Below, piece by piece: positions 31,738 through 63,479 of a stretch of 64,000 nt of DNA. Both the position numbers and the translations under genes were made by a program. How positions within the stretch are numbered: position 1 is the stretch's first letter; each line of letters opens with the position of its first letter. The notes below the pieces were generated by a model. The model was not told the DNA's origin and did not search any database. It saw only the letters and a program-made list of their open reading frames with translations. The DNA is from Acidimicrobiales bacterium (GTDB lineage Bacteria > Actinomycetota > Acidimicrobiia > Acidimicrobiales > CADCSY01): positions 5,256 to 69,255 of the forward strand of contig DATKDW010000052.1 in the NCBI GenBank assembly GCA_035512495.1, given 5' to 3'.

Positions 31738-31748
31738 AGGCCTCTTCC

Positions 31749-33222: not shown

Positions 33223-33356
33223 CAGGATCCTCCGAACACAGAGGGGCGCGGGGCGCCGTCAGATGGAAGGAGCGCTGCACGGCCGGCTCCTCGACGACCT
33301 CAGGCGGTTGAGGGGCACCAGGTGATCCTGAGAGACCCTCCAGTCCACTAGGCCGT

Positions 33357-33503: not shown

Positions 33504-33523
33504 GACGACCTCAAAGGCAGCTG

Positions 33524-33883: not shown

Positions 33884-33980
33884 ACCCTGAGACGCTCGCG
33901 AATGGCTGATCGGAAGAGGTGGGCCGCGCCGAGTATCGAAGGCACGTCGGTGCGGCGTCGCGGGACTTCGTTGGGGCCGG

Positions 33981-35455: not shown

Positions 35456-35641
35456 CTACAGATTCTGCCTCTCTTCTGCCATCTCGAGTCGCTGCTCCAC
35501 TGAGACAAGCCGCTCTTCAAGCTCAGGATCGCGCCGCCCGGTGAACCAGAGCACCAACGCGATGATCATGAGAACAGGCGAGAGGAAGTAGGCGACTGTC
35601 TGCAACCCAGCAAGATCCACGACTACCTCCGAGGCTGTCAT
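35456..35641 (-). CDS. hypothetical small single-TM protein (61 aa)
   Basis: TM 'VAYFLSPVLMIIALVLWF' followed by a charged helix. Its stop abuts the start of the sigma fragment. Confidence 0.4.
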   Translation of the reverse strand: MTASEVVVDLAGLQTVAYFLSPVLMIIALVLWFTGRRDPELEERLVSVEQRLEMAEERQNL

Positions 35642-35892
35642 CGGCCGTGGTCAAGATTGGCCTCGACCCTTTCTTATCATTTCGGCACCGACCCCCTGAT
35701 GTCCTTGTAGGAACCCCTTCGCGGAGCCTGTCTTTCTAATCGCGCAGGCACCGAGTGGACGGGCCGGGCATCGCCGGACGCTGCGCACCGAGTCCGCGCC
35801 GACCTGAGAATCGCGAGCGGTCAGCTGCCACGTGCGGCTGGCCATTCCCGCACCATCAAGCGGCACGTAGGGGCGGTCATCCCGGAGCGCGC

Positions 35893-36471
35893 TCAGTTGT
35901 CGTAGCGGCCAGTCAGGGTCGTCGCGAGTTCGAGCAGCTGGCCCCGGCTGATTCCTGACTGGTAGGCCGTGAGTCCGAAGTTGTCGCCTTCGTCGTTGAC
36001 CAGCACGGAAACGGCCCCGTCGATGCGTGGTTCTTCACTGGGTCGGGAGTAGGTCGCCGCCAGCCCAGGCGTGTCGAGAATCTCCACGTCATCTCCCCAC
36101 GCGCTTCGGAACGTCTCGATATCCGGGAATCTGCCGAAGTTCAGCTGAACGATGATCGCAGCATCCCCGCCGACAGCCCGATAGATGCAGTGCTGCCCCG
36201 CCGCTGCGTCGACCATCGGGATGTCTTCATCGGGGATCCGCTCACCTTCGCTCTCGGCGAACTCGACGAATCCAACCTCGGCGACCTCTGCCCCGAACAG
36301 CTCACTTGCATCAGCTTCTCGAAGCAGTCCGCAAGGGCCGTCGAGCGCGACTTCCTCACCTGAGTCGCTACAGCCGGCCGCTCCGAGCACCGCCAGTAGT
36401 GCTCCCAGACCGACCGCTCGCTGCCATCTGGTTCGAAGCATGCTTGGAGCCACGGGGTACGGATTCGACAT
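35893..36471 (-). CDS. hypothetical lipoprotein
   Basis: Signal peptide with lipobox 'LLAVLGAAGC'. No family recognised. Confidence 0.65.
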   Translation of the reverse strand: MSNPYPVAPSMLRTRWQRAVGLGALLAVLGAAGCSDSGEEVALDGPCGLLREADASELFGAEVAEVGFVEFAESEGERIPDEDIPMVDAAAGQHCIYRAVGGDAAIIVQLNFGRFPDIETFRSAWGDDVEILDTPGLAATYSRPSEEPRIDGAVSVLVNDEGDNFGLTAYQSGISRGQLLELATTLTGRYDN

Positions 36472-36631
36472 CAGACTCGTGCAATCCTCCTCATCGGGTA
36501 CTGCCTATCGCTGACAGCGGTGTGCCTCCGCGCGGTTCCCGGCTCGAGGGCGTCCGCGCCACGCCGATCAGGCTTGGTCGCGTGCGGCTACCACATCCGG
36601 AGAACCGGCTTGCGTCGCCGCCACCGAGCAC

Positions 36632-37252
36632 TTATGTATCGAGTGAGACCTCGTCCCAGTCCTCGCTCGATAGGAGCCACTCGAGTGCTCGACGTCGTTC
36701 CACGATTGCCAGCGGCACTGCACGGGAGCTCCAAGCCGTCCCCCTAAGCGTCGCTTCGACAACGCCCCAGTGAAGACAGAAGGCAAGGTCGAGCGCAGCG
36801 ATCAGCTCGGCCTTGCTTCGGAGGTGAGCACGCGTCACCGCAGCCTCAACACCCTGCGGATCAGGGGGAGGGTGCGGCACCGCCTTCACCAGGTGATTCG
36901 GTGCTTCGACTGTGAAGTCGAGCGCGTCGGGAATGAGCTGGACCGCCCAGGCAAGAGCAAAAATCGCTTCGGGTCGGGCCGCCTCCTCGTCGTCCGGCGA
37001 GTGAGCCTCTGCGAGTAGGTACGCAACCTCGGTATCCGACAGCGCCTCGTCGAGACCTTCACCCGCGACCCAAGCTCGAGCGACGGCGGGCTGACATCCG
37101 TACGCGGTCGCGGCGACTGCTGACAGCACGCCGATGCGGCGCACGACGGCGTCAGTCGATCTCGGACGGAGTCCGCCATCGAGGAGTGGGAAGTGCTCGG
37201 GAGGCGTAGCAGCACCGACTTCCTGCACATCGGCCAGCGACTTCGCACGCAC
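36632..37252 (-). CDS. DUF4272-like protein (start uncertain)
   Basis: C-terminal 'CLHWGVVEA...IVERRRALEWLLSSEDWDEVSLDT' resembles the DUF4272 signature as I recall it. Candidate GTG starts lie at 37252 and 37288. Confidence 0.5.
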   Translation of the reverse strand: MRAKSLADVQEVGAATPPEHFPLLDGGLRPRSTDAVVRRIGVLSAVAATAYGCQPAVARAWVAGEGLDEALSDTEVAYLLAEAHSPDDEEAARPEAIFALAWAVQLIPDALDFTVEAPNHLVKAVPHPPPDPQGVEAAVTRAHLRSKAELIAALDLAFCLHWGVVEATLRGTAWSSRAVPLAIVERRRALEWLLSSEDWDEVSLDT

Positions 37253-37508
37253 CTCACGGAGCTTCGGCCGACGTCGCAACACCCGCACAGATTGCCGGTT
37301 GAGCCAGCGTCGCCGCCACTGCGAACTGGGTGATCGGAGCGGTCGCGTCCAGATGGCGCTCCGAGGCCACCAACACACGGCACCTCGGCGCGTCCTCTAC
37401 CCGGTGATGGGGGCACATCGCAGTGCGGCTCCACGACCAGGACGTCGTGCTTCCGGCGTTGTGGCACCTTGCTGCGACGTAACCACCGACGGCGGGAGAC
37501 GAGACCGC

Positions 37509-38882
37509 CTACGCGCCGGCGCTGGGGGCGATGTTCGGGTTCAGGTGGAAGATGTTGTCGGGGTCGTAGCGGCGCTTCAGCTCAACCAGGCGCTCCCAGC
37601 ACGGGCCGTAGGCGGCGCGCACTCGGTCGGTTTCGTCGTCGCCCAGGTAGTTCATGTACACGGAGTCGGCCATGTACGGCGCGAGCTCTTGGAACGTCTC
37701 GCGCACCCAGGCGATGTTGGCCTCGTCGCCGCCCGGGTCGGGCCAGACGCCTGCCATCACGAGGTTGTAGCCCGGTTCGCGATGCGGGAACGCGGTGGCG
37801 GTGGCCGGCACGCGGCTGACCGCGCCGTGTAAGTGCTCGATGACCATGCCGGTCATGATCGACGGTGTCTTCTCGAACGCCTCGGCCATTAGGGCGACTG
37901 TGTCAGAGGAGATGTCCTTGAAGAACGCGGACTTCCAGTAGTTGCGGGCGCCCTTCGGGAAGCCGTCGTCGAGCAGCGTGTTCTGCACGGGATATGGGAG
38001 GGGCCCGAGCATGTCCATCAGTGGCGTGGCCGCGGAGCGGAGAGCGTTCGCCGCCTTCTCACCCTCCTCGAGATCGCCGCAGTGGCACATGGCCATGGCA
38101 GCGATCTTGTGACCGGACCCGTCGGGGGCGTGAGTCATCGCCATCACCATGACCAGCTCGTCGGGGTTCTCGGCCGAGAACTCTCCGAAGAACTCCCACA
38201 CCTTCGGTGCGTCGGCGAGCGCAAACGCGATGAGGCCGCCATAAACCATGGACACCGGGTGTGCGTCGTACTCGAACGAGGACGCCACACCGAAGTTACC
38301 GCCGCCGCCCCGGACCGCCCAGTAGAGGTCGGCGTCTTCCACGGCGCTCGCGGTGCGGATGTCTCCTTCGGCCGTGATGAGCTCGACCGATCGGACGTTG
38401 TCGACGGCCATGCCGTACTTGCCCATCAGCCACCCGAGGCCGCCGCCCAACGTGAGCCCAGCGATGCCGGTCGTCGAGATCATGCCTCCGGTCGTGGCCA
38501 ACCCGTAAGCGTGGGTGGCCCGGTTGTACTCGTTCCACGTGAGTCCGGCCTGGGCGCGAACTGTGCGGCTCTTCGGGTCGACATGGAGCCCCTTCATCGG
38601 TTGCACGTCGATCATCAGCCCGCCTTCGGTGACGGCTCGGCCCGCAACGTTGTGACCGCCCCCGCGGCTCGAGATCTCGAGATCATGCTCGCGGGCGAAC
38701 TTCACCGCATCGGCGATGTCGGCGGTGTTCTGGCAGCGCACGATCAGCGAGGGTCGCTTGTCGATCAATCCGTTGTGGACCTGCCGGACGTCGTCATAGG
38801 CCACGTCGGAGGCGGTCAGCACCTGACCGGAAAGCCCAGCCCGGAGCTGGTCGAGTGACTCCTGAGGAATCGATCCACTCAT
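37509..38882 (-). CDS. FAD-binding oxidoreductase (PCMH-type FAD domain with C-terminal BBE-like domain)
   Basis: 'PSLIVRCQNTADIADAVKFAREHDLEISSRGGGHNVAGRAV...' and C-terminal 'YMNYLGDDE...RLVELKRRYDPDNIFHLNPNI'. Confidence 0.88.
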   Translation of the reverse strand: MSGSIPQESLDQLRAGLSGQVLTASDVAYDDVRQVHNGLIDKRPSLIVRCQNTADIADAVKFAREHDLEISSRGGGHNVAGRAVTEGGLMIDVQPMKGLHVDPKSRTVRAQAGLTWNEYNRATHAYGLATTGGMISTTGIAGLTLGGGLGWLMGKYGMAVDNVRSVELITAEGDIRTASAVEDADLYWAVRGGGGNFGVASSFEYDAHPVSMVYGGLIAFALADAPKVWEFFGEFSAENPDELVMVMAMTHAPDGSGHKIAAMAMCHCGDLEEGEKAANALRSAATPLMDMLGPLPYPVQNTLLDDGFPKGARNYWKSAFFKDISSDTVALMAEAFEKTPSIMTGMVIEHLHGAVSRVPATATAFPHREPGYNLVMAGVWPDPGGDEANIAWVRETFQELAPYMADSVYMNYLGDDETDRVRAAYGPCWERLVELKRRYDPDNIFHLNPNIAPSAGA

Positions 38883-39263
38883 GACGTATCTGCCCCCATA
38901 TAAGTTTGGCTCGGGTCCCCCACAGACGCGGTGTTCCCGTCTCCGGAGGAGGACCGTGCGTTACAACCGTTACACCCTGAACCCTAACGCTGTGCGTCTT
39001 GCGACGCGGCCGGGCGTGTAGCCCACCGTCGACGACGGTCCCGGCGGAGCCTGCCCTCTGTCGACCACTCACAATCGCCCGCTCTCGCAGATCCGTCGTG
39101 AGATGCGGCCCGTTGACTGCAGCCTGACGCGACCCATCTCGAAGCGCAACACATCCAGACATGGGACACCGACGCCTTCGGTGAGGTAAGTCCGCGCGAT
39201 TGCCGGCTCGCGCGCTTCCAAGGCCAGCGCGACTGAATGATCGGACCTCAGCGCCGCTCCTTG

Positions 39264-39308
39264 GCGCGTATCCAGGCGCGTATCCCTGTGCTACAAGGTG
39301 TATCGGGA
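39264..39308 (+). promoter_or_regulatory. arm-type repeats next to attR
   Basis: GCGCGTATCC occurs twice (39264 and 39276). AGGTGTATCGGGA at 39296 is the reverse complement of the GATACACCT units next to attL. Confidence 0.4.
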
Positions 39309-39385
39309 AGGACAGGATGGACGAGCGAGCAGACGAAAGCGCAGGTCAGAGCACTGCAGCGCTCTCGGTGGACGCTCCAGGGCCA

Positions 39386-39466
39386 ACTCTTAATCCGCAG
39401 GTTCTGGGTTCGAATCCCAGGGGGCGCACTCACCGACACTGCTCTGACCTGGGCTTGTGCTGGTCC
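39386..39466 (+). repeat. attR-type direct repeat (partial tRNA-Lys copy, not a functional tRNA)
   Basis: 80/81 identical to 29234-29314. The sequence 5' of it does not fold into a D arm or anticodon stem. Confidence 0.9.
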
Positions 39467-39502
39467 TGTGCAATGCGCCGATGCCTGACTCATGCTGGCC
39501 GT

Positions 39503-39607
39503 GTGCGGCGCATCTCGGTGGTGGGAAACTCAGGCTCGGGGAAGACGACCCTGGCGCGCTGCACAAGACCCGGCCCCCCCTCGGCAAACTCGGTGCCTAC
39601 TGGTTGA
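39503..39607 (+). pseudogene. remnant of a small P-loop NTPase gene (only the first ~19 codons are recognisable)
   Basis: GTG-initiated 'VRRISVVGNSGSGKTTLAR' is a typical N-terminus of small kinase-like ATPases. It is followed by non-protein-like sequence and an early stop. Confidence 0.35.
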
Positions 39608-39610
39608 CGG
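39571..39610 (+). repeat. left copy of an imperfect ~40-bp inverted repeat
   Basis: 'ccccctcggcaaactcggtgccTACtggttgacgg' versus the reverse complement of 40534-40575, 'ccccctcggcaaactcggtgccCGAtggttgacgg'. Confidence 0.7.
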
Positions 39611-39966
39611 TGAGACGAGTGGATGGTGCCGGGAAGCGGTGCACCCACGTCCCATCCTTGCGGTTGCGCTCCCGCATGGCCGCTCACGCGAACCTCTGTG
39701 CCCGCCGAACGTGACGGAACGGCCCATTGAGCGGATCTCCAGCGTCGTAGTCGTCGCCTCGGATAGCCCTCATGAACGCATCCGCCTGCATGGCGGTCGC
39801 CACAGCCCTTTCCCCCGGTGCGAGCCCGTGACCTGGTGCGCTCACGATTCGAGGGGCGCCAGCGGGAGCGTCCGAGAGGTCTTCAGCAGGACACGGCTTC
39901 CTAACCCGGACCGTTCAAAGGGCGCGCCTATCCGCTCGAGTCCTAAGCGAGCGAGGACCGGTCGCT

Positions 39967-40359
39967 CTAGCCCTCGAGGCGCTCCTTGAGAGCGACGAGG
40001 CCCTGATCGAACATCGGCTCCAGCGCAGGACCGATCTCATCGGGGGTCACCTCGGTGACCCACGTGACGGTCGACGACCCGTCGTTGTCGGCGACCTCCA
40101 TCGTGGCGCGGTGGCTATCGATCGGCATCGGTGCGGTGGTGATCGTGTACTCGAGCCGCCTGTTCGCGTCGTCGACGCTGGTGATCTCCTCCTCGAGGTC
40201 ACCACCGCCTTCCATCGTGCACTGCCGGTTGCCGTTGTCCAGCTTCTTCGATGCCGACAACGCCGGGAGCCAGTCGGCGATGTTGTAGACGTCGCCGACG
40301 ACGTTCCAGACCTCGCCCGGTGAACGGTCGATCTCGATGGTCTTCTCGATGCGTGCCAT
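39967..40359 (-). CDS. SRPBCC-family (polyketide cyclase/dehydrase-like) protein
   Basis: 'MARIEKTIEIDRSPGEVWNVVGDVYNIADWLPAL...RLEYTITTAPMPIDSHRATMEV' is a START/Bet v1-like pattern. Confidence 0.85.
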   Translation of the reverse strand: MARIEKTIEIDRSPGEVWNVVGDVYNIADWLPALSASKKLDNGNRQCTMEGGGDLEEEITSVDDANRRLEYTITTAPMPIDSHRATMEVADNDGSSTVTWVTEVTPDEIGPALEPMFDQGLVALKERLEG

Positions 40360-40533
40360 GGTGGCTTGCCCCCCTGTGTTTACGGTGCCCCGACGTTAGC
40401 CACTATCCGCGGACGAGGTGATCGGCTTCCTCAGCGTCCGCCGAACGGACATGGCGGCACATCACCGCTGCTCGTGAACCTGCCTCCTACGCGTCCCCCA
40501 TGCCACTTACTGCACGCCCTGGGGGGGCGTCTA

Positions 40534-40575
40534 CCGTCAACCATCGGGCACCGAGTTTGCCGAGGGGGCCCGGCC
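40534..40575 (-). repeat. right copy of the imperfect inverted repeat
   Basis: See 39571-39610. The two copies bracket the SRPBCC gene. Confidence 0.7.
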
Positions 40576-40650
40576 CATTCGCATCTCCACTTCGTGCTGC
40601 TGTGCTCGCGTGCGGAAGTCGACGCCTTTCTCGCCGCGGCCAATTGACGG

Positions 40651-41631
40651 TCACCGGGCCGGAGGGGTTCCGACGTGGTTGCGACGGCCAGGCGCGATCC
40701 GTGGCACGACTCGCAGGTACACCACGATGCCGAGGAGTTCGACCAGCGACTGGAACACCACGACCACCGCTGCCGCCGACCAGGGACCCGGGAGCGCCAG
40801 CGCGAGTGGTAGGACCACGAACGAGTTGCGGGTCCCGGCACTGAAGATCAGCGTGCGGGTGGCCGGCGGTTCCAGACGAGCGACCGCGGCGATCCCTCGG
40901 CCGAGAACGAGTGCTGCGACGAGGAACCCGAGATAGATCACGCCGACCCGTCCGAGGATCTCGACCGAGTCGGTCACGACCGACGCCTGAGACGCGGCGA
41001 TGAGGAAGACCACGGTCGCGACCAGCACCACCGGCAGCGCAGAGAGCCGCGGGAGCAGTCGACCCGTCGGCTCATGACGCTCCGCTCGTCGCTGCGTCAC
41101 CCATGCGGCGACGAGCGGGACGACGATGAGGGTGACGAAGACGGTCACCGCAGTGCGAAGTCCGGTGAGCTCTCCGAAGGACTCCCCGACCAGCACGCGC
41201 ACGTACACCGGCAGCAGGAACAGCTGCACGGCGAGCAGGACCGGGGTCACCGCGAGGGCCCGTCTGGTGTCGCCGCCGCCCAGGTGGCTGAACGTGAGGA
41301 ACCAGTCGGTGCAGGGCATCACCAGGACCAGCACCACACCGAGACGTACCGCTGGATCGTCGGGGGCGAGCGGCAACAGTGCCCACACCACCACGGGCAG
41401 CACCGCGAAGTTGGTGACCAAGACGGTGATGACGAACCGCGCGTCGCGCACGACGCCGGGTACGTGCGCAAGCGGCATCTGGAGGAAGGTCACGTACAGG
41501 AGCAGACCGAGCGACGGCCACACCGCCACCTCCACGGCATCGCCGATGCTGGGAGCAGCGAGGCCCAGCGCAAGTCCTGCGGTGATCGCGCTCAGGTACA
41601 GCCAGACCTGATGTCGCTCCAGATGCTGCAT
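40651..41631 (-). CDS. ACR3 / bile-acid:sodium-symporter-fold transporter (arsenic-resistance-protein-like)
   Basis: About 10 TM segments. 'LYVTFLQMP', 'MPCTDWFLTF' and 'FSAGTRNSFVVLPLALAL' are typical of the SBF/ACR3-like fold. Substrate is not inferable. Confidence 0.7.
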   Translation of the reverse strand: MQHLERHQVWLYLSAITAGLALGLAAPSIGDAVEVAVWPSLGLLLYVTFLQMPLAHVPGVVRDARFVITVLVTNFAVLPVVVWALLPLAPDDPAVRLGVVLVLVMPCTDWFLTFSHLGGGDTRRALAVTPVLLAVQLFLLPVYVRVLVGESFGELTGLRTAVTVFVTLIVVPLVAAWVTQRRAERHEPTGRLLPRLSALPVVLVATVVFLIAASQASVVTDSVEILGRVGVIYLGFLVAALVLGRGIAAVARLEPPATRTLIFSAGTRNSFVVLPLALALPGPWSAAAVVVVFQSLVELLGIVVYLRVVPRIAPGRRNHVGTPPAR

Positions 41632-41748
41632 CGTTCCAGAGTGTCACCGCCCCGTGCCCGATCGGTATGCCGGCAGCTCAGCAGTCACGATGCGACTCTG
41701 ACCGCGCCGGGGCCGGCCCGCGCTCCCGGCCGGGGTCCCGTGCCCTGC

Positions 41749-41775
41749 ATGCCATGTCCGTGGCATACTCATGCC
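41749..41775 (+). promoter_or_regulatory. operator-like ATGCCA/TGGCAT repeats and leaderless-type -10 upstream of the antitoxin gene
   Basis: ATGCCA (41749-54) -N6- TGGCAT (41761-66) -N4- ATGCCA (41771-76). CATACT at 41764-41769 ends 7 nt before the A of the ATG at 41776. Confidence 0.35.
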
Positions 41776-42012
41776 ATGGCCCGGGAACGAGTGAGCACGA
41801 CCGTTGACGGAGATCTTCTCGCGGAGGCGCGGGCGCGCCAGGCGGGACTGAATGACTCCTCCCTGTTCGACGCGGCGCTTGCAGCTCTGGTCCGCGCAGG
41901 TCGCGCAGCCGAGATCGACGCCGCCTATGCCGCGTACGACGAACACCCACTCGCCGAAGCGGACGAGTGGGGCGATCTTGCATCCTTCCGGGACGCGAAT
42001 GCGGCCTCGTGA
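41776..42012 (+). CDS. type II antitoxin (ribbon-helix-helix / MazE-like)
   Basis: 'MARERVSTTVDGDLLAEARARQAGLNDSSLFDAAL' is an RHH-like N-terminus. The stop overlaps the toxin start (GTGA). Confidence 0.75.
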   Translation: MARERVSTTVDGDLLAEARARQAGLNDSSLFDAALAALVRAGRAAEIDAAYAAYDEHPLAEADEWGDLASFRDANAAS

Positions 42013-42338
42013 CCGGCGTTCCTGAGCGGGGCGAGGTCTGGTGGTGCGAGCTGCCGGATGTCGGTCGGCGGCCAGTCGTCGTGCTGTCCCGCGACGCGGC
42101 CATCCCACGACTGCACCGAGCGCTGGTCGGACCGTGCACCACGACGATTCGCGGCCTGCCGAGCGAGGTCGTTCTCGAGCCGGGCGACGACCCGGTGCCC
42201 CGTCGGTCTGCCGTCAACCTGGACTCGCTCGAGAGCGTCAGCATCGGCGTTCTCGTCGAGCGGCTCGGACGACTGAGTGACGACCGAATGGAAGAGGTCT
42301 GCGACGCCGTGGCCATTGCAGTCGATTGCCGACGCTGA
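42009..42338 (+). CDS. mazF: PemK/MazF-family endoribonuclease toxin
   Basis: 'PERGEVWWCELPDVGRRPVVVLSRDAAIPRL...TTIRGLPSEVVLEPGDDPVPRRSAVNLDSLESV' is the MazF/PemK signature. Confidence 0.85.
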   Translation: MTGVPERGEVWWCELPDVGRRPVVVLSRDAAIPRLHRALVGPCTTTIRGLPSEVVLEPGDDPVPRRSAVNLDSLESVSIGVLVERLGRLSDDRMEEVCDAVAIAVDCRR

Positions 42339-42475
42339 CGAGCCGCACCAACGGCCGGGGCTTGCGGCGACGAGCGGACCACGTCGCGATCGGGCAATCT
42401 CTACGGGTGGCAACCGCCACCATGGCGACGAGCGGGGGCGAGCGTGGTCGAGGTTCGCAGAGCCAGCACGGGTGT

Positions 42476-42775
42476 TTAGCGCTGAGGATGCTCACGTCGA
42501 TGGAGACGCGCCACAAGATGCAGAGCGAGCCGCACTACTACCTGCCCTTCATCGGTACCGACCCTGACCACCGGGGCAAAGGCCAGGGGACCGCTCTGCT
42601 CGCCGACATGTTGCTTCGTTGCGACGAAGAGGGCATGCCCGCGTATCTGGAATCGACGAGGATCGAGAACCGGGCGCTCTATCACCGCCACGGCTTCCAG
42701 GTCCTCGACGAAATGCACTGGCCCAGGGGCGGCCCCCCTTGGTGGCCGATGTGGCGAAAGCCTCGGGCCACCTGA
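42476..42775 (+). pseudogene. GNAT N-acetyltransferase, C-terminal fragment only
   Basis: 'METRHKMQSEPHYYLPFIGTDPDHRGKGQGTALLADMLLRCDEEGMPAYLESTRIENRALYHRHGFQV' covers motifs A/B only. I could not read the N-terminal ~100 aa of a normal GNAT in any frame upstream. Confidence 0.55.
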
Positions 42776-42864
42776 CCGACTTCTACGAAGCCGAGCTCAG
42801 CGGAGACTTCGACTGTGTCTGTTACCTACCACAGGCGCGGCCCGAGTCCCGTACCATCCCCTCC

Positions 42865-43854
42865 GTGAAGCTGCGCCGCTTGATCATCGCGTCCACGCTC
42901 GCTCTGGTCGCCGCCTGCTCCTCCGGTGGTGACGAGACTGATGTCGCGACCGTCGACTTCGGCGCCGCGCTCAGCGCTACGGCGGAGATCACCCACTACC
43001 GGCTGACCCAGTCGACGGGGCAGACCACCGACGTCGCCGCGCTGGGACTGTCGGGGTCGACCGAGCCCGACCCGGATCAGCCGACCGTGATCGGCCAGGT
43101 CACGCCCGAGCGTTCCTACGTGGAGATCGACTTCGACGCCGTGTTCGCCAGCTTCCCCGGAAGCGAGGCCGGCAAGATGCGGATCTGGTCCGACCCCGAG
43201 CGGGTCGTCATCGACACCACCGACCTCGGCGCAGCCTTCGCTGGTGTCGATGCCGGCCCGATGGAACCGGGGATCGGCTACGTCGACCTCACCAGAGTCG
43301 AGTCGGAGGCCTCGGACCTGGTGGCCGCGATCACAGGCGGGGGCATGCCCGACCTCACCGAACTGGCTACCTCGCTTCCCGCTGCGCTCTCCGGGGTCAC
43401 CGAGACCGAGACCGGCGTGTTCACGGGCGCCATCAGCCACGCCGATTTCCTCACCACGATGGGCCAGGACGTCGAGACGCTATCCCGCACGACCGCCGCA
43501 GGCCTCGCCCTCACCTTGGACGTTGACGTGAACGCGCTCACCCGCGTCTACGTCGACGCGTTCACGAACTCGGCGGCCGAGATGACCGTGGTGGTCGAAG
43601 GCGGCGTCGTCCGCGAGATCCGCGAGGTCTTCGACGTCACGGTCGTGTTCGATGCCATGCTGCGTGACGACTCCCTGTTCGACTCCGCAGCAGAACAGTC
43701 CGAGTTTGAGACGACGTTCGCCGACGCCGTGTGGATCATCGAGACCGTGATGACGTTCGAGCCGGACCCCGCGCTGGTGGTCGAACCGCTACCGGCGACC
43801 GACGACGACCGCACCGACGCCTGGGTCGAGTTCCTCCGCGGCGCCGGATTCTGA
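42865..43854 (+). CDS. hypothetical lipoprotein (329 aa)
   Basis: GTG start. Signal with lipobox 'LIIASTLALVAAC', acidic mature part. No family recognised. Confidence 0.7.
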   Translation: MKLRRLIIASTLALVAACSSGGDETDVATVDFGAALSATAEITHYRLTQSTGQTTDVAALGLSGSTEPDPDQPTVIGQVTPERSYVEIDFDAVFASFPGSEAGKMRIWSDPERVVIDTTDLGAAFAGVDAGPMEPGIGYVDLTRVESEASDLVAAITGGGMPDLTELATSLPAALSGVTETETGVFTGAISHADFLTTMGQDVETLSRTTAAGLALTLDVDVNALTRVYVDAFTNSAAEMTVVVEGGVVREIREVFDVTVVFDAMLRDDSLFDSAAEQSEFETTFADAVWIIETVMTFEPDPALVVEPLPATDDDRTDAWVEFLRGAGF

Positions 43855-43950
43855 TCGGAAGTCGTCGGGCCTGCCTGCTGATCGCGGGCGCTTCTGACCT
43901 TCACCGTGGCGGAGCGGCGCGTCGCTGGGCATCGGCACGTAGGGGCGGCA

Positions 43951-44391
43951 TCACGAGGGCGCGGGCGGTGACCACCGAGAGCCGTCAGTTCCTGGCAGGA
44001 CGGTGACTGCGATCTGCTCGTGATGGCACGCATCCAGGAGCGCCGGGTCAGAGGTTGCGAGCGGTCGGTCGATGCGTCGGGCGACTTCGGCTGCCATGCA
44101 GTCCGCCAGGCTGATCGGACAACGTGTTCGGTGGTAGCGGCGAGCACGGAAGCGGCCGGCCGCTGAGGCCACCTCGCCATCAATCACGACGGCGTCGTCA
44201 AGACCCAGCTGCGCGAGGTCAAGGCTGGCTTCCTCTTCATCGGCCCCTCCGAGCCGAACAAGGTGGTCGATCACCTCGGCGACTCCGACTGCCGTCAGTG
44301 CACCGCCGGCATGGATGAGATCCTCGACTTCGCCGGCAGCCGCTTCGTCCTTGAGGAACGCAAGTACCGCGTAGGCGTCGAGGATCGTCAA
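43951..44391 (-). CDS. vapC: PIN-domain ribonuclease toxin (VapC-like)
   Basis: 'ILDAYAVLAFL...AVGVAEVIDHL...ISLADCMAAEVA...LATSDPALLD' carries PIN acidic residues. The start overlaps the antitoxin stop. Confidence 0.85.
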   Translation of the reverse strand: MTILDAYAVLAFLKDEAAAGEVEDLIHAGGALTAVGVAEVIDHLVRLGGADEEEASLDLAQLGLDDAVVIDGEVASAAGRFRARRYHRTRCPISLADCMAAEVARRIDRPLATSDPALLDACHHEQIAVTVLPGTDGSRWSPPAPS

Positions 44392-44636
44392 CGACGGCTC
44401 GGTCGGTCGGTGTCCACTCGCCGCGAAGCCCGCCGGGCACGACTCGTTGCCGGTCCCTGCTTCGCGTACTTGCCACGCAGCTCTCCGACCGGTTCAGCTC
44501 CAACCGGTCGCATGACGACACGGTCGCCGAGGTCGACGACGAGGACCTGCCGAGTGTTCCACCGGGCTCTCGTCTCGGCCGGGATCGAGACTTGGCCGTT
44601 CCGGGACACCGTCATCACGTGCGAGGCCTCGCTCAT
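44388..44636 (-). CDS. vapB: AbrB/MazE/SpoVT-family antitoxin
   Basis: 'VMTVSRNGQVSIPAETRARWNTRQVLVVDLGDRVVMRP' is a swapped-hairpin AbrB fold. ATG 44636 chosen; ATG 44678 is also possible. Confidence 0.8.
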   Translation of the reverse strand: MSEASHVMTVSRNGQVSIPAETRARWNTRQVLVVDLGDRVVMRPVGAEPVGELRGKYAKQGPATSRARRASRRVDTDRPSRR

Positions 44637-44845
44637 CGCCTCATTGTACGCCACGCGTGCAGTGTTGTATGCGGCCATGCCGAGTGCTGCCGGCTTGCCG
44701 ACGACCACGCCGAGATCAGATGATCGCGAGCGCAGCCGAGGCGCGAGTGGATGATCGGAGCGGTCAGCTCCCGAAGCGGTCCCGCCTGGAGAGCTGTTGG
44801 TCAACGGCACCTCGGTACGGCGTCCAGCGCCGACCAGGAAGGCGC

Positions 44846-45886
44846 TTACGCAGTCAGGACGCGGTACGTCTCGTTCACGAGATCAGCTGCCCCACCGCTG
44901 GCCATCTGGTTCATGACGTACCCGATTCCGAGCCGACGCGACGCATCGCCCATACCGACGGAACCGCCCATGCCGGTGTGGCCGAATGTCGACGTGTTCA
45001 TTCCGGGGAAGAGCTTCCAGAACAGCTGATAGCCGAGCCCAAACTCGCCAGCCGGCCCGTCCCCGTTTAGCAGCGGCTGCTCCTGGATGGCGCCTTCGAT
45101 CGTCTTGGCTCGAAGCACCCGCACACCGTCCAGTTCACCCCCGCACGCGAGAGCGGCGTACACGCGTGCGAGGCCGTGGGCGGTGCCATGGCCTGTCGCA
45201 GCGCCGTCTCCAGCGGCACGCCACTCGCGGGTGTTCACCAAGTCGTCATCGCCGATGATCTCAGCGCATCGGGAATCGTGCTCAGGCCCGAAGGCCATCA
45301 TGAAGTCCGCACCGAGCGGCTCGGCGATCTCTTCGCGGAAGAACACATCGAGCGAGCGTCCGTCAATCCGCCGGACAATTTCCCCTATGAGATAGCCGAA
45401 GGTTCCCCCGTGATATTCACTGCGGGAGCCGGGCCTCCAGACCGGCGCCGACCGAGCGAGCGCTGTCGTGAGTATCTCCCAGTCGAACCGCTTGTCCGGC
45501 GGGTACGGCGCCGTCGTCCACGGGAGCCCGGCCTGATGGCTGAGCACCATCCGCACGGTGACCTGATCCTTGCCTTCCTGGGCGAATTCGGGCCAGTAGG
45601 TGGCGACGGCTTCGTCTACGTCAAGCAGACCACGGTCGACGAGCACTTGAGCGCACGTCGCCGTCATTCCCTTCGTTGCCGAATAGACGGTGGCGATGGT
45701 GTCGCGCTGCCACGCACAAGTCCGGTGCGCGTCCGCCCAGCCGCCCCACAGATCGACGACCTTGCGCCCGTCCACGTACACGCAGACTGCTGCGCCCACC
45801 TCGCTTCCCTTGAAGCTCCGCTCGAAGATCTCATACACCGACTCGAACGCAGGCTCGACGGTTCCATCGACGTGTCCCTCGCTCAC
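44846..45886 (-). CDS. serine hydrolase, beta-lactamase/esterase (class C-like) family
   Basis: 'VYSATKGMTA' (SxxK), 'YHGGTFGYLIGE' and 'FGHTGMGGS'. GTG 45886 is preceded by AGGAG. Confidence 0.85.
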   Translation of the reverse strand: MSEGHVDGTVEPAFESVYEIFERSFKGSEVGAAVCVYVDGRKVVDLWGGWADAHRTCAWQRDTIATVYSATKGMTATCAQVLVDRGLLDVDEAVATYWPEFAQEGKDQVTVRMVLSHQAGLPWTTAPYPPDKRFDWEILTTALARSAPVWRPGSRSEYHGGTFGYLIGEIVRRIDGRSLDVFFREEIAEPLGADFMMAFGPEHDSRCAEIIGDDDLVNTREWRAAGDGAATGHGTAHGLARVYAALACGGELDGVRVLRAKTIEGAIQEQPLLNGDGPAGEFGLGYQLFWKLFPGMNTSTFGHTGMGGSVGMGDASRRLGIGYVMNQMASGGAADLVNETYRVLTA

Positions 45887-46041
45887 AGCGATCTCGCTCC
45901 TGAGTCCTCGCACTGAGAACCTCGACGACCGGCATGAACAAGATTCTGCCACGCCGCAACCGAGCAGCACTCCGCATGCGTCAGAGCGTAAGTTTGGACG
46001 GTGAGCGGAGACGGGCCTTCCGCACCAGGGAGTCTCGCCCC

Positions 46042-46431
46042 ATGACTGAATACGCAGACGTGCCCTCCGAAATCGTCCGCCGTGTCCGTGCAGCATGCGC
46101 TCACTTGCCGGAGGCATACGAGGAGCAGGCGTTCGAAGGGGTCCGGTGGCGGATCCGCGGCAGCACGCTGGCCCACGTAATCGCGAGGGACTACGGGGAG
46201 GGGCCGGTCTCCCACGTGACCTTCCACGCACTCAGTGAGGAGCTTGACGCGCTGGTCGCAACCGGCGATCCATTCTTCCCGGGGTGGGGCGCTGGTCTCG
46301 TCGCAATGGTGCTACGCAGCGACGGAACGACTGATTGGGACGAGGTCCGGGAATTGCTCACGGAGAGCTACTGCTTGCTCGCTCCGAAGAAGCTGGTCGC
46401 TCGCCTCGATACATTTCGACCCGACGTATAG
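46042..46431 (+). CDS. MmcQ/YjbR-family protein
   Basis: 'RVRAACAHLPEAYEEQAFEGVRWRIRGSTLAHV...WDEVRELLTESYCLLAPKKL' matches the YjbR pattern. Confidence 0.75.
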   Translation: MTEYADVPSEIVRRVRAACAHLPEAYEEQAFEGVRWRIRGSTLAHVIARDYGEGPVSHVTFHALSEELDALVATGDPFFPGWGAGLVAMVLRSDGTTDWDEVRELLTESYCLLAPKKLVARLDTFRPDV

Positions 46432-59185: not shown

Positions 59186-59246
59186 GCAACGAGGATGGCA
59201 GGCGCGTGTGACACCGAGCCGTCGGCGACGGGCCGGCGGACCTCGA

Positions 59247-59858
59247 TCAGGACCCTGACTGGCCCCGCTTGGTGATCACGTGGTCGATGAGGCCGTAGTC
59301 CTTGGCGGCTTCGGCCGAGAACCACCGGTCGCGGTCGGAGTCGGCCTCGATCTGGTCCACCGCCTGCCCGGTGTGGTGCGAGATGCGCTCCATGAGGATG
59401 CGCTTGGTGTAGGCCATCTGCTCGGCCTGGATGGCGATGTCGCTCGCCTGGCCCCGGACCCCGCCGGAGGGCTGGTGCATCATGATCCGGGCGTGCGGGA
59501 GGCTGTAGCGCTTGCCGGCGGCCCCGGCGCACAGCAGGAACTGGCCCATCGAGGCGGCCAGGCCCATGCAGATCGTCGCCACGTCGCACTTGACGAACTG
59601 CATGGTGTCGTACATGGCCATGCCGGCGGTGACCACGCCCCCGGGGCTGTTGATGTACAGCCAGATGTCCTTCGAGTCGTCCTGACCCTCGAGGTACAGC
59701 AGCTGGGCGATGACCATGTTGGCGACCTGATCGTCCACCTCGCTGCCGAGGACGACGATCCGATCCTGGAGGAGGCGGTTGAAGACCTCCATCTGGGGCG
59801 AGGTGTTGAGGTCCTTCATGACCGGGGCGGTCAGGGGGCCGGGGAGCGCGGGGTCCAT
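59247..59858 (-). CDS. clpP: ATP-dependent Clp protease proteolytic subunit (ClpP1-like paralogue)
   Basis: '[63 protein letters not shown]...MMHQPSGG'. ATG 59858 or 59819. Confidence 0.9.
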
Positions 59859-59993
59859 GTCGAGGGAGGCTACCGGGCGACGCCGCGCCCCACGCACGGC
59901 GCCCAGGACCTGGTGGGCGCGGGCCGGCGCCCGCAGGTGACGTGGACCCGCCTACGTTGGCGTCGACCGCACGACCAACGAAGCGAGGTACCG

Positions 59994-60419
59994 ATGCCCA
60001 CCACCCGCACCGCCACCACGACCTGGCAGGGCTCCCTGACCGAGGGCCAGGGCCGTGTCGAGCTCGAGTCGTCCGGTCTCGGCGGCTTCGACGTCACCTG
60101 GGCGTCGCGCGCCGAGGACCCCGCCGGGCGCACCAGCCCCGAGGAGCTCATCGGCGCCGCCCACTCGTCGTGTTACTCCATGGCGCTGTCGAGCGCCCTC
60201 ACCAAGGCGGGGACACCGCCCGAGCGACTCGAGACGACCGCCGCCGTGACGTTCCAGCCCGGTGAGGGCATCACGGGGGTCCACCTCACGGTGAAGGGCG
60301 AGGTGCCGGGGCTGTCGCCGGAGGCGTTCACCGAGGCCGCCGAGGGCGCCAAGGCCGGGTGCCCGGTGAGCAAGGCACTCACCGGCACCACCATCACCCT
60401 CACCGCCACCCTCGCCTGA
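59994..60419 (+). CDS. osmC: OsmC-family peroxiredoxin
   Basis: 'TATTTWQGSLTEGQGRVE...PEELIGAAHSSCYSMAL...AKAGCPVSKAL' contains the two conserved Cys. Confidence 0.9.
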   Translation: MPTTRTATTTWQGSLTEGQGRVELESSGLGGFDVTWASRAEDPAGRTSPEELIGAAHSSCYSMALSSALTKAGTPPERLETTAAVTFQPGEGITGVHLTVKGEVPGLSPEAFTEAAEGAKAGCPVSKALTGTTITLTATLA

Positions 60420-60435
60420 CGATCGCCCTCGGGGT

Positions 60436-60480
60436 CACGTTCACTGCCGAGAAGGGGTGGGCGCGGAGAGACTCGAACTC
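60436..60480 (-). repeat. distal direct repeat (partial tRNA-Leu 3'-end copy)
   Basis: 'cacgTtcacTgccgagaaggggtgggcgcggagagaCtcgaactc' is 42/45 identical to 62293-62337. Confidence 0.85.
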
Positions 60481-60483
60481 GCG

Positions 60484-62118
60484 TTACGACGGGCGGAGGG
60501 TGTCGACGGCCCGGACCGGATGTGACGGCGGTGAAGATCCCAGTGAGCCGTGGAACTCCACCCCACCGAACGTAAAGATGCCGCCGTCAGCGCCAACCAT
60601 CAGATAGCCGCTCGTCCCGGGGCTGCTCATTCCGACCACCGCGCGGTTGAGCGGCGTCCCGCCCATCGAGCCATGGAACGGAGCATCGAAAGCGAAGATC
60701 CCGCCATCGGAGGCGACGAGCCAGTAACCCGATCCATCGTGGTCCGGGACGATCGCATTGACGGGCTGGTTGAGCCGCATCGACCCCGTGCTGCCCCGAA
60801 ACGCCGCATCACCGAAGGTGAACACACCACCGTCTGTGCCAACCATGTAGTACCCGCGCCCCGAGGGTGTGGCAGCGGCTGCGACGACCGGACCATTCAG
60901 CTTTACCTGGCCGAGATCGCCATGATGGACAGCTGTTCCGAACGGGAACACGCGTCCAAGGGTCGTGAAGATCCAGTAGCCATCGCCTGTTGGCAGCGCG
61001 GCGATGGTCGAGACCCGCTCGCCCGGTCGCAGGGCACCGGCGGGAACGCTCCCCCGGTGAGGAGCGAGGCCGAAGACTCCAACCGTTCCTCGGTCGTCGA
61101 CGAGCCAGTACCCGGCTCCGCCAGGACGACTCGCGATGCCGACGGTTGGGTGGGGCTGTCCGCGCCAGTCACCGTGCCACCGGCTGTCGCCGAACGCGAA
61201 CACCTGGCCGTCGGAGGTGACCATCCAGTGACCGGATGGCGCGGGTGGCTCAGCCGGGGACGGATCGCTCTGCGGAGGGTTTCCACCGTTCTCGCCTACT
61301 TGTTGTTGCAGGTTGGTGATCCAGTGGACGTATGTGCCGACCCGAGTGAAGTTGCCGGGCGCACTTCCGCAAGGCGAACGGCCGAAGCTCACGATGCCAG
61401 CAACGACAAGCCAACCGCTGTCGTTGTACGCCAACAAGGGGCCACCGCTGTCGCCGTCGCAGGCTGTCCGCTCAGAGCTGCCGGCACACATGTTGACGCC
61501 GATTGTGTACTTGTCGGTCCATGACTGACAGTAACCATCGCTCCAAATGGGAAGCGACGCGCTCTGAAGACGAGCTGGATAGGAACCTCCGCGCGGGTCT
61601 CTGCTTCCCCAGCCAGCGACCACACCGTCGTCGTCGTTCCAGACTGGTTCGTCTGTTCCCATGCGAGCGATGGATTGATATCGCGACTGATACGGAAGTT
61701 GGATCAGCGCCAAGTCGTGCGGGTGAGCCGTGGTCGGTCGGTAGTCGGGGTGCACGTAGATGTGCTTCGGGACGATGCTCTCCCCGTCATTGGCGTAGAG
61801 GTCTTGTCGTCCGATCACCATCTCGAGACTGCTGGGGCTGTCGACGAACTCTGTCACGCAATGGGCTGCCGTCAGCACCCAGTGGCCACGGCCGATCAGT
61901 GTGCCGCCGCAGTAGAACCGATCGCCGAAGGGTCCGGGGCCTGGCCTGGCAAGCGCCACGATGAAGGGAAAGCTTCCGGGTGGAGCGTCTTCCCCACCCA
62001 CGACGGCCGATTCGTAGCTCGCTTCGCCCGAGGGTTCAGCTAGAGCCGGTGCGGCGACGCCCAGTGTCAGCGCGAGGAGCACGCAGACAATCGACGCCAC
62101 CCGCTTGCGGAACCTCAA
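60484..62118 (-). CDS. secreted trypsin-like (S1) serine protease fused to six ~40-aa 'GYW..DGG.F.FG' beta-propeller-type repeats
   Basis: A TTG at 62118, preceded by GAAGGGA, gives the signal peptide 'MRFRKRVASIVCVLLALTLGVAAPALA'; ATG 62172 or 62184 are alternatives. 'VVGGEDAPPGSFPF...TAAHC' and 'CDGDSGGPL' mark the catalytic triad. Six repeats follow, such as 'GYWLVASDGGIFAFDAPFHGSMGG'. Confidence 0.8.
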   Translation of the reverse strand: MRFRKRVASIVCVLLALTLGVAAPALAEPSGEASYESAVVGGEDAPPGSFPFIVALARPGPGPFGDRFYCGGTLIGRGHWVLTAAHCVTEFVDSPSSLEMVIGRQDLYANDGESIVPKHIYVHPDYRPTTAHPHDLALIQLPYQSRYQSIARMGTDEPVWNDDDGVVAGWGSRDPRGGSYPARLQSASLPIWSDGYCQSWTDKYTIGVNMCAGSSERTACDGDSGGPLLAYNDSGWLVVAGIVSFGRSPCGSAPGNFTRVGTYVHWITNLQQQVGENGGNPPQSDPSPAEPPAPSGHWMVTSDGQVFAFGDSRWHGDWRGQPHPTVGIASRPGGAGYWLVDDRGTVGVFGLAPHRGSVPAGALRPGERVSTIAALPTGDGYWIFTTLGRVFPFGTAVHHGDLGQVKLNGPVVAAAATPSGRGYYMVGTDGGVFTFGDAAFRGSTGSMRLNQPVNAIVPDHDGSGYWLVASDGGIFAFDAPFHGSMGGTPLNRAVVGMSSPGTSGYLMVGADGGIFTFGGVEFHGSLGSSPPSHPVRAVDTLRPS

Positions 62119-62292
62119 GTCGAATCCCTTCGTCACCGTCGGGAACAAAAGGGACGATAAGGAGCAGGGCATGGCGACGGCCATAGGTCGTAAGGCCCTA
62201 CCGAAGCCGGCCCCTGGAGCAGACCGGAACGCGCGGGAGCAGCAGCCGGGCGGTGACTTCGTGTCATCCCAGAGCCGCAACACCGTGACCAG

Positions 62293-62337
62293 CACGCTCA
62301 CGGCCGAGAAGGGGTGGGCGCGGAGAGATTCGAACTC
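62293..62337 (-). repeat. proximal direct repeat (last 23 nt of tRNA-Leu plus 22 nt downstream)
   Basis: See 60436-60480. Confidence 0.85.
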
Positions 62338-63338
62338 TCATGCCGTGAGGCACTGGCACCTAAAGCCAGCGTGTCTGCCAGTTCCACCACGCGCCCGCTG
62401 AGGCGCCGAGGATACTGCGCCACCCGCACCCGTCGCCGGACGAGCACCACGCCGTTGGCGAGGAGGCCGAGAGCCGCAAGGAGGGCGACGGCGGCGTGGG
62501 GGGCGATGCTGGGGAACAGTCCCGACTGGAGGTCGACCTCGACGGCCTCGCCGGCGGCGGTCATCCCCACCGCACGACCTGCGAGCTCGGCGTCGGCGTC
62601 GGCGTCGGCGACCGGGACGGCGACCTCGAGCGGCTCCGACTCGGGAGCCGGAGCCGCAGCCGCAGCCGCAGCCGGGGTCGGAGCGGGAGCAGGGGCCGGG
62701 GCGGGCGCCGGGGTCGGAGCGGGAGCAGGGGCCGGGGCCGGGGCCGGGGCAGGCGCCGGGGTCGGGGCCGGAGCGGGAGCCGGGGCCGGGGCCGGGGCCG
62801 GGGCAGGAGCAGGAGCCGGGGCGGGCGCCGGGGCGCTGGCCGGCTGCACGAAGTTGTGGGTGCCCCACCAGAGGCGGCCGTCGTGGACCATGGCGAGGCC
62901 GACGACGGTGAAGCGGGCGTCGAGGATGTTGTTGCGGTGGCCCTCGCTCGCCATCAGGCGACGGTGCATGTCGTCGACGCTGCCGTTGTAGGCGACGTTC
63001 TCGCCCAGCGCCCTGGCGTCGAGGCGCTGGCGGGTCTCCTCGGTGAAGTAGGCGTCGTTGTGGCGCAGCACCTTGTCCTCGGACATCGCCCGGGAGTGGC
63101 CGGTGGCGATGTCCACCACGTCGGAGCGCATCGAAGCGGCGGGGAGTCCCCGGCTGGTGCGCTCCTCGTTGATCAGGCGGAGCATCTGCTGGGCTGCGGC
63201 GGCGGGGTCCGGGGCGCTGGCGGCGGTGAACTCGCACTCGTCGGTGCAGGAGCTGGCCATCCCGGGGACGATGCCGGCGAACCAGATGACTACTGCGAGG
63301 AGTGCCGAGAGGATGAGGTGCGAGGTAGTCCGGGTCAT
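62298..63338 (-). CDS. CAP/SCP (PR-1-like) domain protein with long (Ala-Pro)n linker and C-terminal TM anchor
   Basis: Signal 'LILSALLAVVIWFAGIVPGMA'. CAP motifs 'MLRLINEERTSRGLP...HSRAMSE...GENVAY...SEGHRNNIL'. About 60 residues of AP/TP repeats, then TM 'AVALLAALGLLANGVVLV' followed by RRRV. The only in-frame stop lies beyond the tRNA-Leu gene. Confidence 0.75.
   Translation of the reverse strand: MTRTTSHLILSALLAVVIWFAGIVPGMASSCTDECEFTAASAPDPAAAAQQMLRLINEERTSRGLPAASMRSDVVDIATGHSRAMSEDKVLRHNDAYFTEETRQRLDARALGENVAYNGSVDDMHRRLMASEGHRNNILDARFTVVGLAMVHDGRLWWGTHNFVQPASAPAPAPAPAPAPAPAPAPAPAPAPTPAPAPAPAPAPAPAPTPAPAPAPAPAPTPAAAAAAAPAPESEPLEVAVPVADADADAELAGRAVGMTAAGEAVEVDLQSGLFPSIAPHAAVALLAALGLLANGVVLVRRRVRVAQYPRRLSGRVVELADTLALGASASRHESSNLSAPTPSRP
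62315..62396 (-). tRNA. tRNA-Leu (anticodon UAG), class II with long variable arm
   Basis: Reverse complement: gggcgcg-tg-gtgg..gacac-ctggc-tttaggt-gccag-tgcctcacggca-t-gagag-ttcgaat-ctctc-cgcgccc-a. Confidence 0.9.
62640..62835 (-). repeat. GC-rich hexanucleotide-type coding repeat encoding (AP)n/(TP)
   Basis: Plus strand reads '...gccggggccggggccggggcaggcgccggggtcggggccggagcgggagcc...'. Confidence 0.8.
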
Positions 63339-63479
63339 GACTTGACTATCGGGACCACCACTCTTCGCGGTTGAGACAACGTTCCGACAACACCCGTAGT
63401 GAAAAAATAGGGACGCGAAGCGCGTCATGGAACGCCACCTCGGACGTCAGCTCCCGATGGCGGCCCGGTAGCGTCCGGC

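Follow-up and report, generated by a model that had tools for sequence, protein, structure and literature searches.

A single-gene protease islet at tRNA-Leu(UAG) of an uncultured Acidimicrobiales bacterium, stacked on an older osmC insertion and probably left by an integrative element

The window analysed here, 64,000 nucleotides (nt) from an uncultured Acidimicrobiales bacterium (positions 5,256 to 69,255 of contig DATKDW010000052.1, assembly GCA_035512495.1), carries a tRNA-Leu(UAG) gene whose 3' end occurs a second time 1.86 kb away, as one copy of a 45-nt direct repeat, with one complete gene, for a predicted secreted serine protease, between the two copies. We interpret this 1.8-kb islet as the outcome of a tyrosine-integrase insertion at tRNA-Leu followed by loss of the integrase module, a history that would leave it resembling a cis-mobilizable element (CIME) and to which we assign a probability of roughly 0.6; a deletion remnant is favoured over a cassette mobilized in trans. 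Along the tRNA strand the order is tRNA-Leu, a 174-nt spacer, the protease gene, the distal repeat (DR-B), osmC on the opposite strand, a short vestige of a third repeat (DR-C) and clpP, and the features are as follows (att, attachment site).

62313..62396, minus strand: functional tRNA-Leu(UAG), of which the last 25 nt (T-stem onwards) fall within the proximal repeat; T-loop TTCGAAT; 3' end ACCC.
62293..62337, minus strand: DR-A, the proximal 45-nt att repeat, attL-like; 25 nt of tRNA 3' end plus 20 nt downstream; T-loop A, GTGAGCG.
62119..62292, minus strand: non-coding spacer of 174 nt between DR-A and the probable protease start; GC content of 62122-62292, 0.649.
60484..62184, minus strand: predicted secreted serine protease of the S1 (trypsin) family, whose C-terminal domain has six repeats and is beta-propeller-like; gene called from ATG at 62184, 566 amino acids (aa).
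60436..60480, minus strand: DR-B, the distal 45-nt repeat, attR-like; putatively the displaced original tRNA 3' end plus its 20-nt pre-insertion flank; T-loop G, GTGAACG.
59994..60419, plus strand: osmC (OsmC-family peroxiredoxin; Pfam OsmC; TIGR03562, 3e-50), the sole gene of the older layer, 59923-60435.
59911..59922, minus strand: DR-C, what is left of the ancestral tRNA-Leu 3' end (11-12 nt, CCGCGCCCACCA); the native leader, about 52 nt long, separates it from clpP.
59247..59858, minus strand: clpP (Pfam CLP_protease, 4e-79), the native gene directly downstream of tRNA-Leu in relatives and the far boundary of the stack.

The direct repeat, which had been described in an earlier note made from the sequence of this stretch, is confirmed: the copies at 60436-60480 and 62293-62337 are identical at 42 of 45 positions, none of 100 dinucleotide-preserving shuffles of the window yielded a 45-mer match at three or fewer mismatches, and the 45-mer occurs twice in the 64 kb against a chance expectation of 0. 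By ARAGORN, tRNA-Leu(tag) occupies 62313-62396 of the minus strand, and by Rfam (RF00005, 54 bits) 62315-62396. With the ARAGORN end the repeat comprises 25 nt of tRNA and 20 nt of downstream sequence, and with the Rfam end 23 and 22 nt, the split given in the earlier note; the two differ in whether the encoded CC that follows the discriminator base counts as tRNA. Read in the sense of the tRNA, the repeat opens with the T-stem 5' strand (GAGTTCGA...), takes in the acceptor stem and continues past the gene, and its edges are sharp, as pairwise alignment finds no similarity outside the 45 nt on either side. Sites that start in the T-stem are the commonest class among the tRNA islands collected by Islander (1836 of 3919; PMC4383910). 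As Islander asks of its target genes, an intact tRNA-Leu and a 25-nt displaced 3' fragment lie in direct orientation on one replicon, and the two 45-nt copies (42/45) would correspond, at the level of sequence, to the attL and attR that a CIME retains. Within the interval tRNA-Leu is the sole Rfam match, neither promoter nor terminator consensus was found in the spacer or the interval, and folding of the spacer is not significant (z=-1.6).

Comparison with relatives indicates that the interval between tRNA-Leu and clpP was once empty. A scan of one genome per GTDB species with the last 23 nt of tRNA-Leu returned 58 loci, and closer relatives were reached through ClpP homologues and their contigs. 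In at least 10 metagenome-assembled genomes (MAGs) of Acidimicrobiia and other Actinomycetota, clpP comes immediately after tRNA-Leu(UAG), in the same orientation (the adjacency is found in L069, L073, L022, L053, L028, L031, L037, L036, L059, L007, L055 and L024). Among relatives with 87-99% identical ClpP, one intergenic spacer of 50 nt is found in five states of occupancy, that of the window and the following (ClpP identity to the window in brackets).

L069 (95%): empty; tRNA-Leu at 8143-8227, clpP from 8280.
L073 (90%): empty; tRNA at 298-380, clpP from 451.
L070 and L072 (94%): three other genes, for an FtsX/MacB-type permease, an ABC ATPase and a glyoxalase-family protein (L070 2259-5111).
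L078-L083 (87%): one gene, for a 470-aa membrane protein with a weak PMT-like match (L078 2139-3726).
L064 (98.9% over 87 aa; 92% nucleotide identity across clpP-osmC): clpP, osmC and a tRNA-end repeat at 857-902, no complete tRNA, then sequence unrelated to the protease.

In L069 and L073 clpP follows tRNA-Leu within 52-70 nt, and the relatives carry no protease gene at this interval. The unrelated sequence of L064 encodes a 74-aa helix-turn-helix (HTH) protein that is excisionase-like (phrog_597, 5e-10; phrog_66, 3.5e-6), relatives of which lie 2-4 kb from tyrosine integrases in two IMG/VR contigs. L064 represents a different, phage-like element at the same distal repeat, that is, turnover of occupants at one att. 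On its tRNA side the repeat of the window begins where the T-stem begins, and that of L064 does so to within 2 nt; the element sequences next to them are unrelated to each other. More generally, the tRNA-Leu/clpP interval is a hot spot of gene gain, with the cargo of L070/L072 and of L078-L083 lacking a detectable tRNA-end repeat, so gene gain here does not always leave an att scar. Candidate repeats around the cargo of L070 and L078 were judged to be chance, as only 10-mer matches at or inside clpP were seen in all loci.

The mismatches between DR-A and DR-B have a polarity. Over 85 nt the tRNA-Leu of the window differs from that of L069 at a single position (98.8% identity), a G>A change in the T-loop that is also one of the three mismatches between the repeats. 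The working tRNA reads TTCGAAT, and TTCGAGT is found in DR-B, the L064 repeat, L069, L070, L073, L078 and the Acidimicrobiia MAGs examined; the tRNA-Leu(UAG) genes of L009 and L034, two Actinomycetota MAGs at a greater distance, also have the A-type T-loop. At the second mismatch DR-A has GTGAGCG and both DR-B and L064 have GTGAACG, and overall the L064 distal repeat sides with DR-B at two of the three mismatches. In the standard model the tRNA receives its new 3' end from the incoming element, and the original end of the host is displaced (PMC4383910). Because DR-B keeps the G of the clade, as this model predicts, the mismatches would mostly record element att against host att and not elapsed time: at least the T-loop mismatch appears to mark origin, the second probably does so too, and we infer that DR-A was supplied by the incoming element. 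The suggestion in the earlier note that the mismatches speak for an event that is not very recent consequently has to be given up. Mismatches between att copies can record host-versus-element origin instead of age, which matters wherever islands are dated. The ancestral tRNA-Leu encodes its CCA, as seen from ACCA in L069 (8222-8227) and in the DR-C vestige (59911-59914); the working tRNA-Leu of the window reads ACCC (62310-62315) because its 3' flank was replaced, and with CCA not encoded it depends on CCA addition.

Behind the protease islet lies an older insertion. A blastn alignment of window 59246-59922 to L069 8892-8216 ends inside the L069 tRNA (8143-8227), and at residue level CCGCGCCCACCA at 59922-59911 is followed by a leader that is homologous to, and matched in length with, the tRNA-clpP spacer of L069. 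Upstream of clpP the window thus retains 11-12 nt of the ancestral tRNA end, and all of 59923-62312 is inserted relative to L069. On sequence, then, the locus reads as a two-layer stack. The DR-C 11-mer occurs four times in the window against 0.33 expected, and a chance origin of the copy at 59912 (an unrelated copy lies at 55262) is ruled out by orthology with the L069 tRNA end. The tRNA-Leu/clpP interval has no osmC in L069, L073 and at least 10 more distant MAGs; the gene is host-like in composition (GC at third codon positions, GC3, of 0.94) and has homologues of 83-87% identity in other Acidimicrobiales, in unrelated neighbourhoods with no tRNA-Leu. The 20 nt that follow the tRNA end in DR-A, DR-B and the L064 repeat (CCTTCTCRGCNGTGARCG) are unlike the native flank of L069, L070, L073 and L078, and therefore arrived with or after the osmC layer. 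A GC-rich hairpin (GCGGGC-cggc-GCCCGC, 59913-59940) overlaps DR-C in the divergent osmC/clpP promoter region and could be an operator or chance.

The protease gene (Trypsin PF00089, E=1.6e-43, Pfam) is the single real gene between the repeats, and GC content there is below that of the flanks, two points of the earlier note that stand: GC is 0.59-0.68 inside the interval against 0.73-0.79 in the flanks, and the 1812 nt from repeat to repeat have 0.648, compared with 0.710 across the window. In codon composition the gene is foreign, with a GC3 of 0.73 against 0.97 for clpP and 0.94 for both osmC and the helicase gene. An empty site and a distinct composition are thus both found, the interval being absent from L069 and L073 and its GC3 of 0.73 standing against 0.94-0.97. 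Translation probably starts at TTG 62118 after GAAGGGA (544 aa), which is favoured over ATG 62184 because of this motif and the N-termini of homologues. Its stop codon lies 3 nt from DR-B. The protein has a signal peptide-like N-terminus and is complete, aligning from end to end, C-terminus included, with homologues of 44-49% identity, and the predicted catalytic His, Asp and Ser are invariant between it and these homologues. The nearest full-length homologue is 47% identical and none is closer among 5.8 billion clusters; nor did JGI protein searches find a protease above 47% identity or the osmC-clpP lineage. The protease has no PHROG match, and its homologues in other genomes are not adjacent to tRNA-Leu. 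We also considered whether the family is typically island-borne and rejected this, as one homologue, on a contig of 1 Mb, is surrounded by ordinary chromosomal genes.

AlphaFold and Foldseek predict a trypsin fold whose best matches are trypsins of Saccharopolyspora and Streptomyces (TM-scores of 0.88-0.92). The C-terminal 258 aa (60484-61260) form six repeats with the motif GYW-LV-x-DGG-IF-x-FGDA-x-F-x-GS, modelled as an all-beta domain of six three-strand repeats (predicted local distance difference test, pLDDT, 96; predicted TM-score, pTM, 0.92) that would be only loosely propeller-like when compared with the PDB (TM-scores of 0.5-0.65) and has no sequence match in Pfam, NCBIfam or PDB. Judged from the top matches among 7466 proteins at E<=1e-10, obtained with the whole protein as query, this domain recurs in thousands of proteins of Acidimicrobiia and Actinomycetota, joined to diverse extracellular enzymes: S8 peptidases, L,D-transpeptidases, SpoIID/LytB, CAP domains and glycoside hydrolases.

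From 47 kb to the end of the window at 64 kb, the space between the repeats included, domain annotation and synteny with relatives reveal no recombinase. The absence of an integrase reported in the earlier note accordingly holds for the islet and not for the window, which has one at 29305-31188 in a separate element of about 10 kb at tRNA-Lys. Between the repeats the Trypsin-family protease is all there is, where Islander calls for an integrase; the lack of integration and transfer genes is what a CIME shows. The remainder of the region from 47 kb to the window end is housekeeping or syntenic (purE, purK, an AlaX-like gene, a dienelactone hydrolase, a sigma/anti-sigma pair, a TRAM methyltransferase, Rpe, SLT_2, the helicase, clpP and a D-serine-dehydratase-like protein), with a CAP-domain gene as the sole non-syntenic gene listed. 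This CAP/YkwD-domain gene (62398-63452), on the 5' side of tRNA-Leu, has a long Pro-Ala repeat and represents about 1.05 kb of inserted sequence that L069 and L070 lack; its reading frame meets no stop before tRNA-Leu, crosses the whole tRNA and ends at 62298 inside DR-A.

The element at tRNA-Lys consists of the following parts.

29205-29277, plus strand: tRNA-Lys(ctt).
29305-31188: tyrosine integrase (PF00589, 5.6e-9; HNH_3 region), adjoining tRNA-Lys(ctt).
31749-33164, minus strand: TraI/RecD-like helicase, within the element.

It is bounded by a direct 81-nt repeat (29234-29314 and 39386-39466, 80/81 identical) that spans tRNA-Lys from the anticodon loop and 37 nt past the gene end. This second integrated element (29205-39466, about 10 kb) looks intact, and it indicates that in this genome att blocks pass the tRNA end and the integrase adjoins the regenerated tRNA. 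By analogy it would be the intact form of the same anatomy and may show where the tRNA-Leu integrase would have been; at the corresponding position the tRNA-Leu islet has only its 174-nt spacer. The tRNA-Lys att is unrelated in sequence to that of tRNA-Leu. GC content is 0.64-0.685 over about 13 kb (33000-46000), against 0.71-0.76 elsewhere, and this stretch runs about 6.5 kb past the repeat end at 39466. Its genes include a beta-lactamase-family protein (44846-46231), an SBF transporter, a GNAT protein and a polyketide-cyclase-like protein, and it may represent another island, older and in tandem; no additional copy of the tRNA-Lys repeat was detected.

We propose the following history for the tRNA-Leu locus. 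An earlier insertion placed osmC between tRNA-Leu and clpP and left the DR-C vestige. In a second event an integrative element, a temperate phage or an actinomycete integrative element, may then have entered tRNA-Leu(UAG), its tyrosine integrase acting site-specifically on the region from the T-stem to the 3' end. Its att, with the T-loop A and no encoded CCA, would have rebuilt the tRNA 3' end as DR-A, and the original end with its 20-nt flank (DR-B, T-loop G) would have been displaced by 1.86 kb. One deletion within the element, with one end just inside DR-A and the other upstream of the protease gene, could have removed the integrase and the rest of the element, so that the last cargo gene, the intact protease, and the 174-nt spacer would survive in 60481-62292, flanked by both att copies. 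A single deletion suffices because the protease gene is complete, reads towards the distal att and ends beside it. That the repeats are attL and attR of a tRNA-targeted insertion, as the earlier note had proposed, is supported by the empty site of L069 and L073, the polarity of the T-loop, the foreign codons and the L064 element. Given the phage-like occupant of the same att in L064, a parent that was an integrative and conjugative element (ICE) or an integrative and mobilizable element is also plausible.

Several observations weigh against this history. No trace of an integrase is present in the 174-nt spacer and the parent element is in none of the collections searched, so the deletion of the integrase is something we infer and do not see. 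Both layers, protease and osmC, consist of exactly one intact gene with no mobility gene, and two independent decays each to one gene would be somewhat coincidental. The identity block includes the 20-nt flank that is foreign to the empty-site relatives, and the element att must therefore have matched a lineage-specific flank. Finally, the earlier note had predicted an empty site in the form of osmC followed directly by tRNA-Leu, as would be seen with the protease layer alone empty or excised; the empty site found in relatives has tRNA-Leu directly before clpP, and the predicted state was not found among them.

The single-gene layers could instead be explained by a minimal att-flanked cassette, a 1.8-kb unit of spacer, protease and one 45-nt att that moves in trans: an integrase from elsewhere, for example from an element of the L064 type, would excise it as a circle and insert it at the tRNA, so that single-gene units pile up. 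Both layers are single intact genes bounded by tRNA-end repeats with no mobility genes, the unit is compact, the protease stop lying 3 nt from DR-B, the L064 element uses the same att and could supply an integrase, and integrase-less elements with attL and attR that are moved by a helper are documented as CIMEs (PMC5704250). We nevertheless consider such a cassette unlikely, since no second copy of the unit or its att was found: a 35-mer of the att had 0 matches in IMG/VR and a 32-mer 0 in JGI metagenomes, and none of the Acidimicrobiia loci among the 58 GTDB loci with the tRNA end has a second copy. Blastn of the whole cassette, spacer included, against phage and plasmid records gave no match. 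Likewise, no joint that skips 60481-62337 was seen in Logan contigs of four soil runs compared over 58.8-63.8 kb, contigs being unable to show rare forms, and no contig of the source runs joins across the cassette, the source soil run having a 3058-nt contig identical to 59643-62700; a few long 'skips' were rejected, as they rest on sides of 21-50 nt from other organisms. The 11-12 nt repeat and host-like composition of the osmC layer also make the two layers unlike members of one cassette family, and the only integrase of the window is tied to the tRNA-Lys att.

When IMG/VR was scanned with the 25-nt tRNA end, two matches were returned, a tRNA-Val gene and a partial tRNA-Val, which were set aside as related to tRNA-Val and not relevant to tRNA-Leu. 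The partial tRNA-Val lies in a viral contig that has no complete tRNA (L075, IMGVR_UViG_3300035136_000050, 930-990); it covers the anticodon loop and everything 3' of it, shares the 25-nt T-arm and acceptor sequence with the tRNA-Leu of the window, and looks like an attP or att junction.

An extension of the trans-acting scheme would make the tRNA-Leu/clpP interval a cassette-stacking site, an integron-like array built by a trans integrase from single-gene units that each end in a tRNA 3' end, the protease, then osmC, and in relatives one or a few other genes. We are sceptical that either the array or its single-gene units exist in this form; if they did, cassette stacking would be an undescribed route of single-gene acquisition at tRNAs, and the evidence does not favour it. 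An integron cassette in the usual sense was rejected, as the boundary repeat is the 3' end of a tRNA, with no attC, no IntI-type gene nearby and no inverted repeat pairing the ends. A transposon, insertion sequence or miniature inverted-repeat transposable element was likewise rejected, with no terminal inverted repeats at 60481 or 62292 among the inverted pairs listed, a duplication of 45 nt where 2-15 bp would be expected, and no transposase.

It is also improbable that the islet arose with no site-specific recombination at all, by entry of DNA from a relative that carried the protease downstream of its own tRNA-Leu, anchored by homology at the tRNA and joined illegitimately on the far side, with a partial second tRNA end left behind. 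The near-identical tRNA across the clade would offer such an anchor, and the cargo of L070/L072 (three genes) and L078-L083 (one gene) has no tRNA-end repeat. Yet a repeat edge at the T-stem start in both the window and L064 is expected of an integrase core and would otherwise be coincidence, and protease homologues elsewhere are not beside tRNA-Leu. A length of 45 nt is, moreover, typical of the att identity segments of actinomycete integrative elements. That there was no insertion, the 45-mer being a local duplication or dispersed intergenic repeat around a native protease gene, is effectively refuted: its 11-mer core does recur once, at 55262, and beyond this it is a bare possibility, as the 45-mer is confined to its two copies in the window, against 0 expected, and is absent from the viral and JGI metagenome collections, the interval is foreign in composition and relatives have an empty site, so that neither outcome named in the earlier note as refuting an insertion (the protease at this locus in all relatives, or a 45-mer that is a common intergenic repeat) was encountered.

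Among known systems, stacked islands have been described elsewhere, and we compare the locus with these as analogues only. In the vcr islands of Dehalococcoides each layer is reportedly delimited by a short repeat of the tmRNA-gene 3' end. Several cargo layers lie at the tmRNA gene in these islands (PMC3146451); unlike the tRNA-Leu islet, they are larger and integrase-associated.

Within the phylum of the host, pSAM2, SLP1, the pMEA-type elements and mycobacteriophage L5 are the natural comparison, and the tRNA-Lys element of the window shows the same arrangement of an integrase beside the tRNA. In these actinomycete elements the att identity segment measures a few tens of nucleotides and covers the 3' part of the tRNA. 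The tRNA-Leu islet differs from them in lacking int, xis, rep and tra.

With the CIMEs and tandem accretion related to ICESt1 and ICESt3 of Streptococcus thermophilus, the locus shares layers arranged in tandem at the 3' end of the target gene (PMC5704250). It differs in its host, an uncultured actinobacterium of Acidimicrobiia type, in its target, a tRNA, and in the 11-12 nt repeat of its older layer. Since a CIME is defined by the retention of attL and attR and the loss of integration and transfer genes, the islet would on sequence be CIME-like by definition.

Closest in anatomy are the tRNA islands of Islander, with which the islet has in common an intact tRNA and a displaced 3' fragment, an att that starts in the T-stem, foreign composition, an empty site and alternative occupants (PMC4383910). 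It departs from them in having no integrase, phage or conjugation genes, and at 1.8 kb, with one gene and no integrase, it would therefore be rejected by Islander-type filters. Finders of tRNA-fragment islands that require an integrase would miss such islets, and the one missed here brought in a complete secreted protease. Set beside these systems, the islet belongs to an ordinary type of genomic islet, decayed or hitch-hiking, with an older osmC insertion beneath it, and the locus provides a nucleotide-resolved case of a tRNA hot spot gaining and shedding cargo in an uncultured soil actinobacterial lineage.

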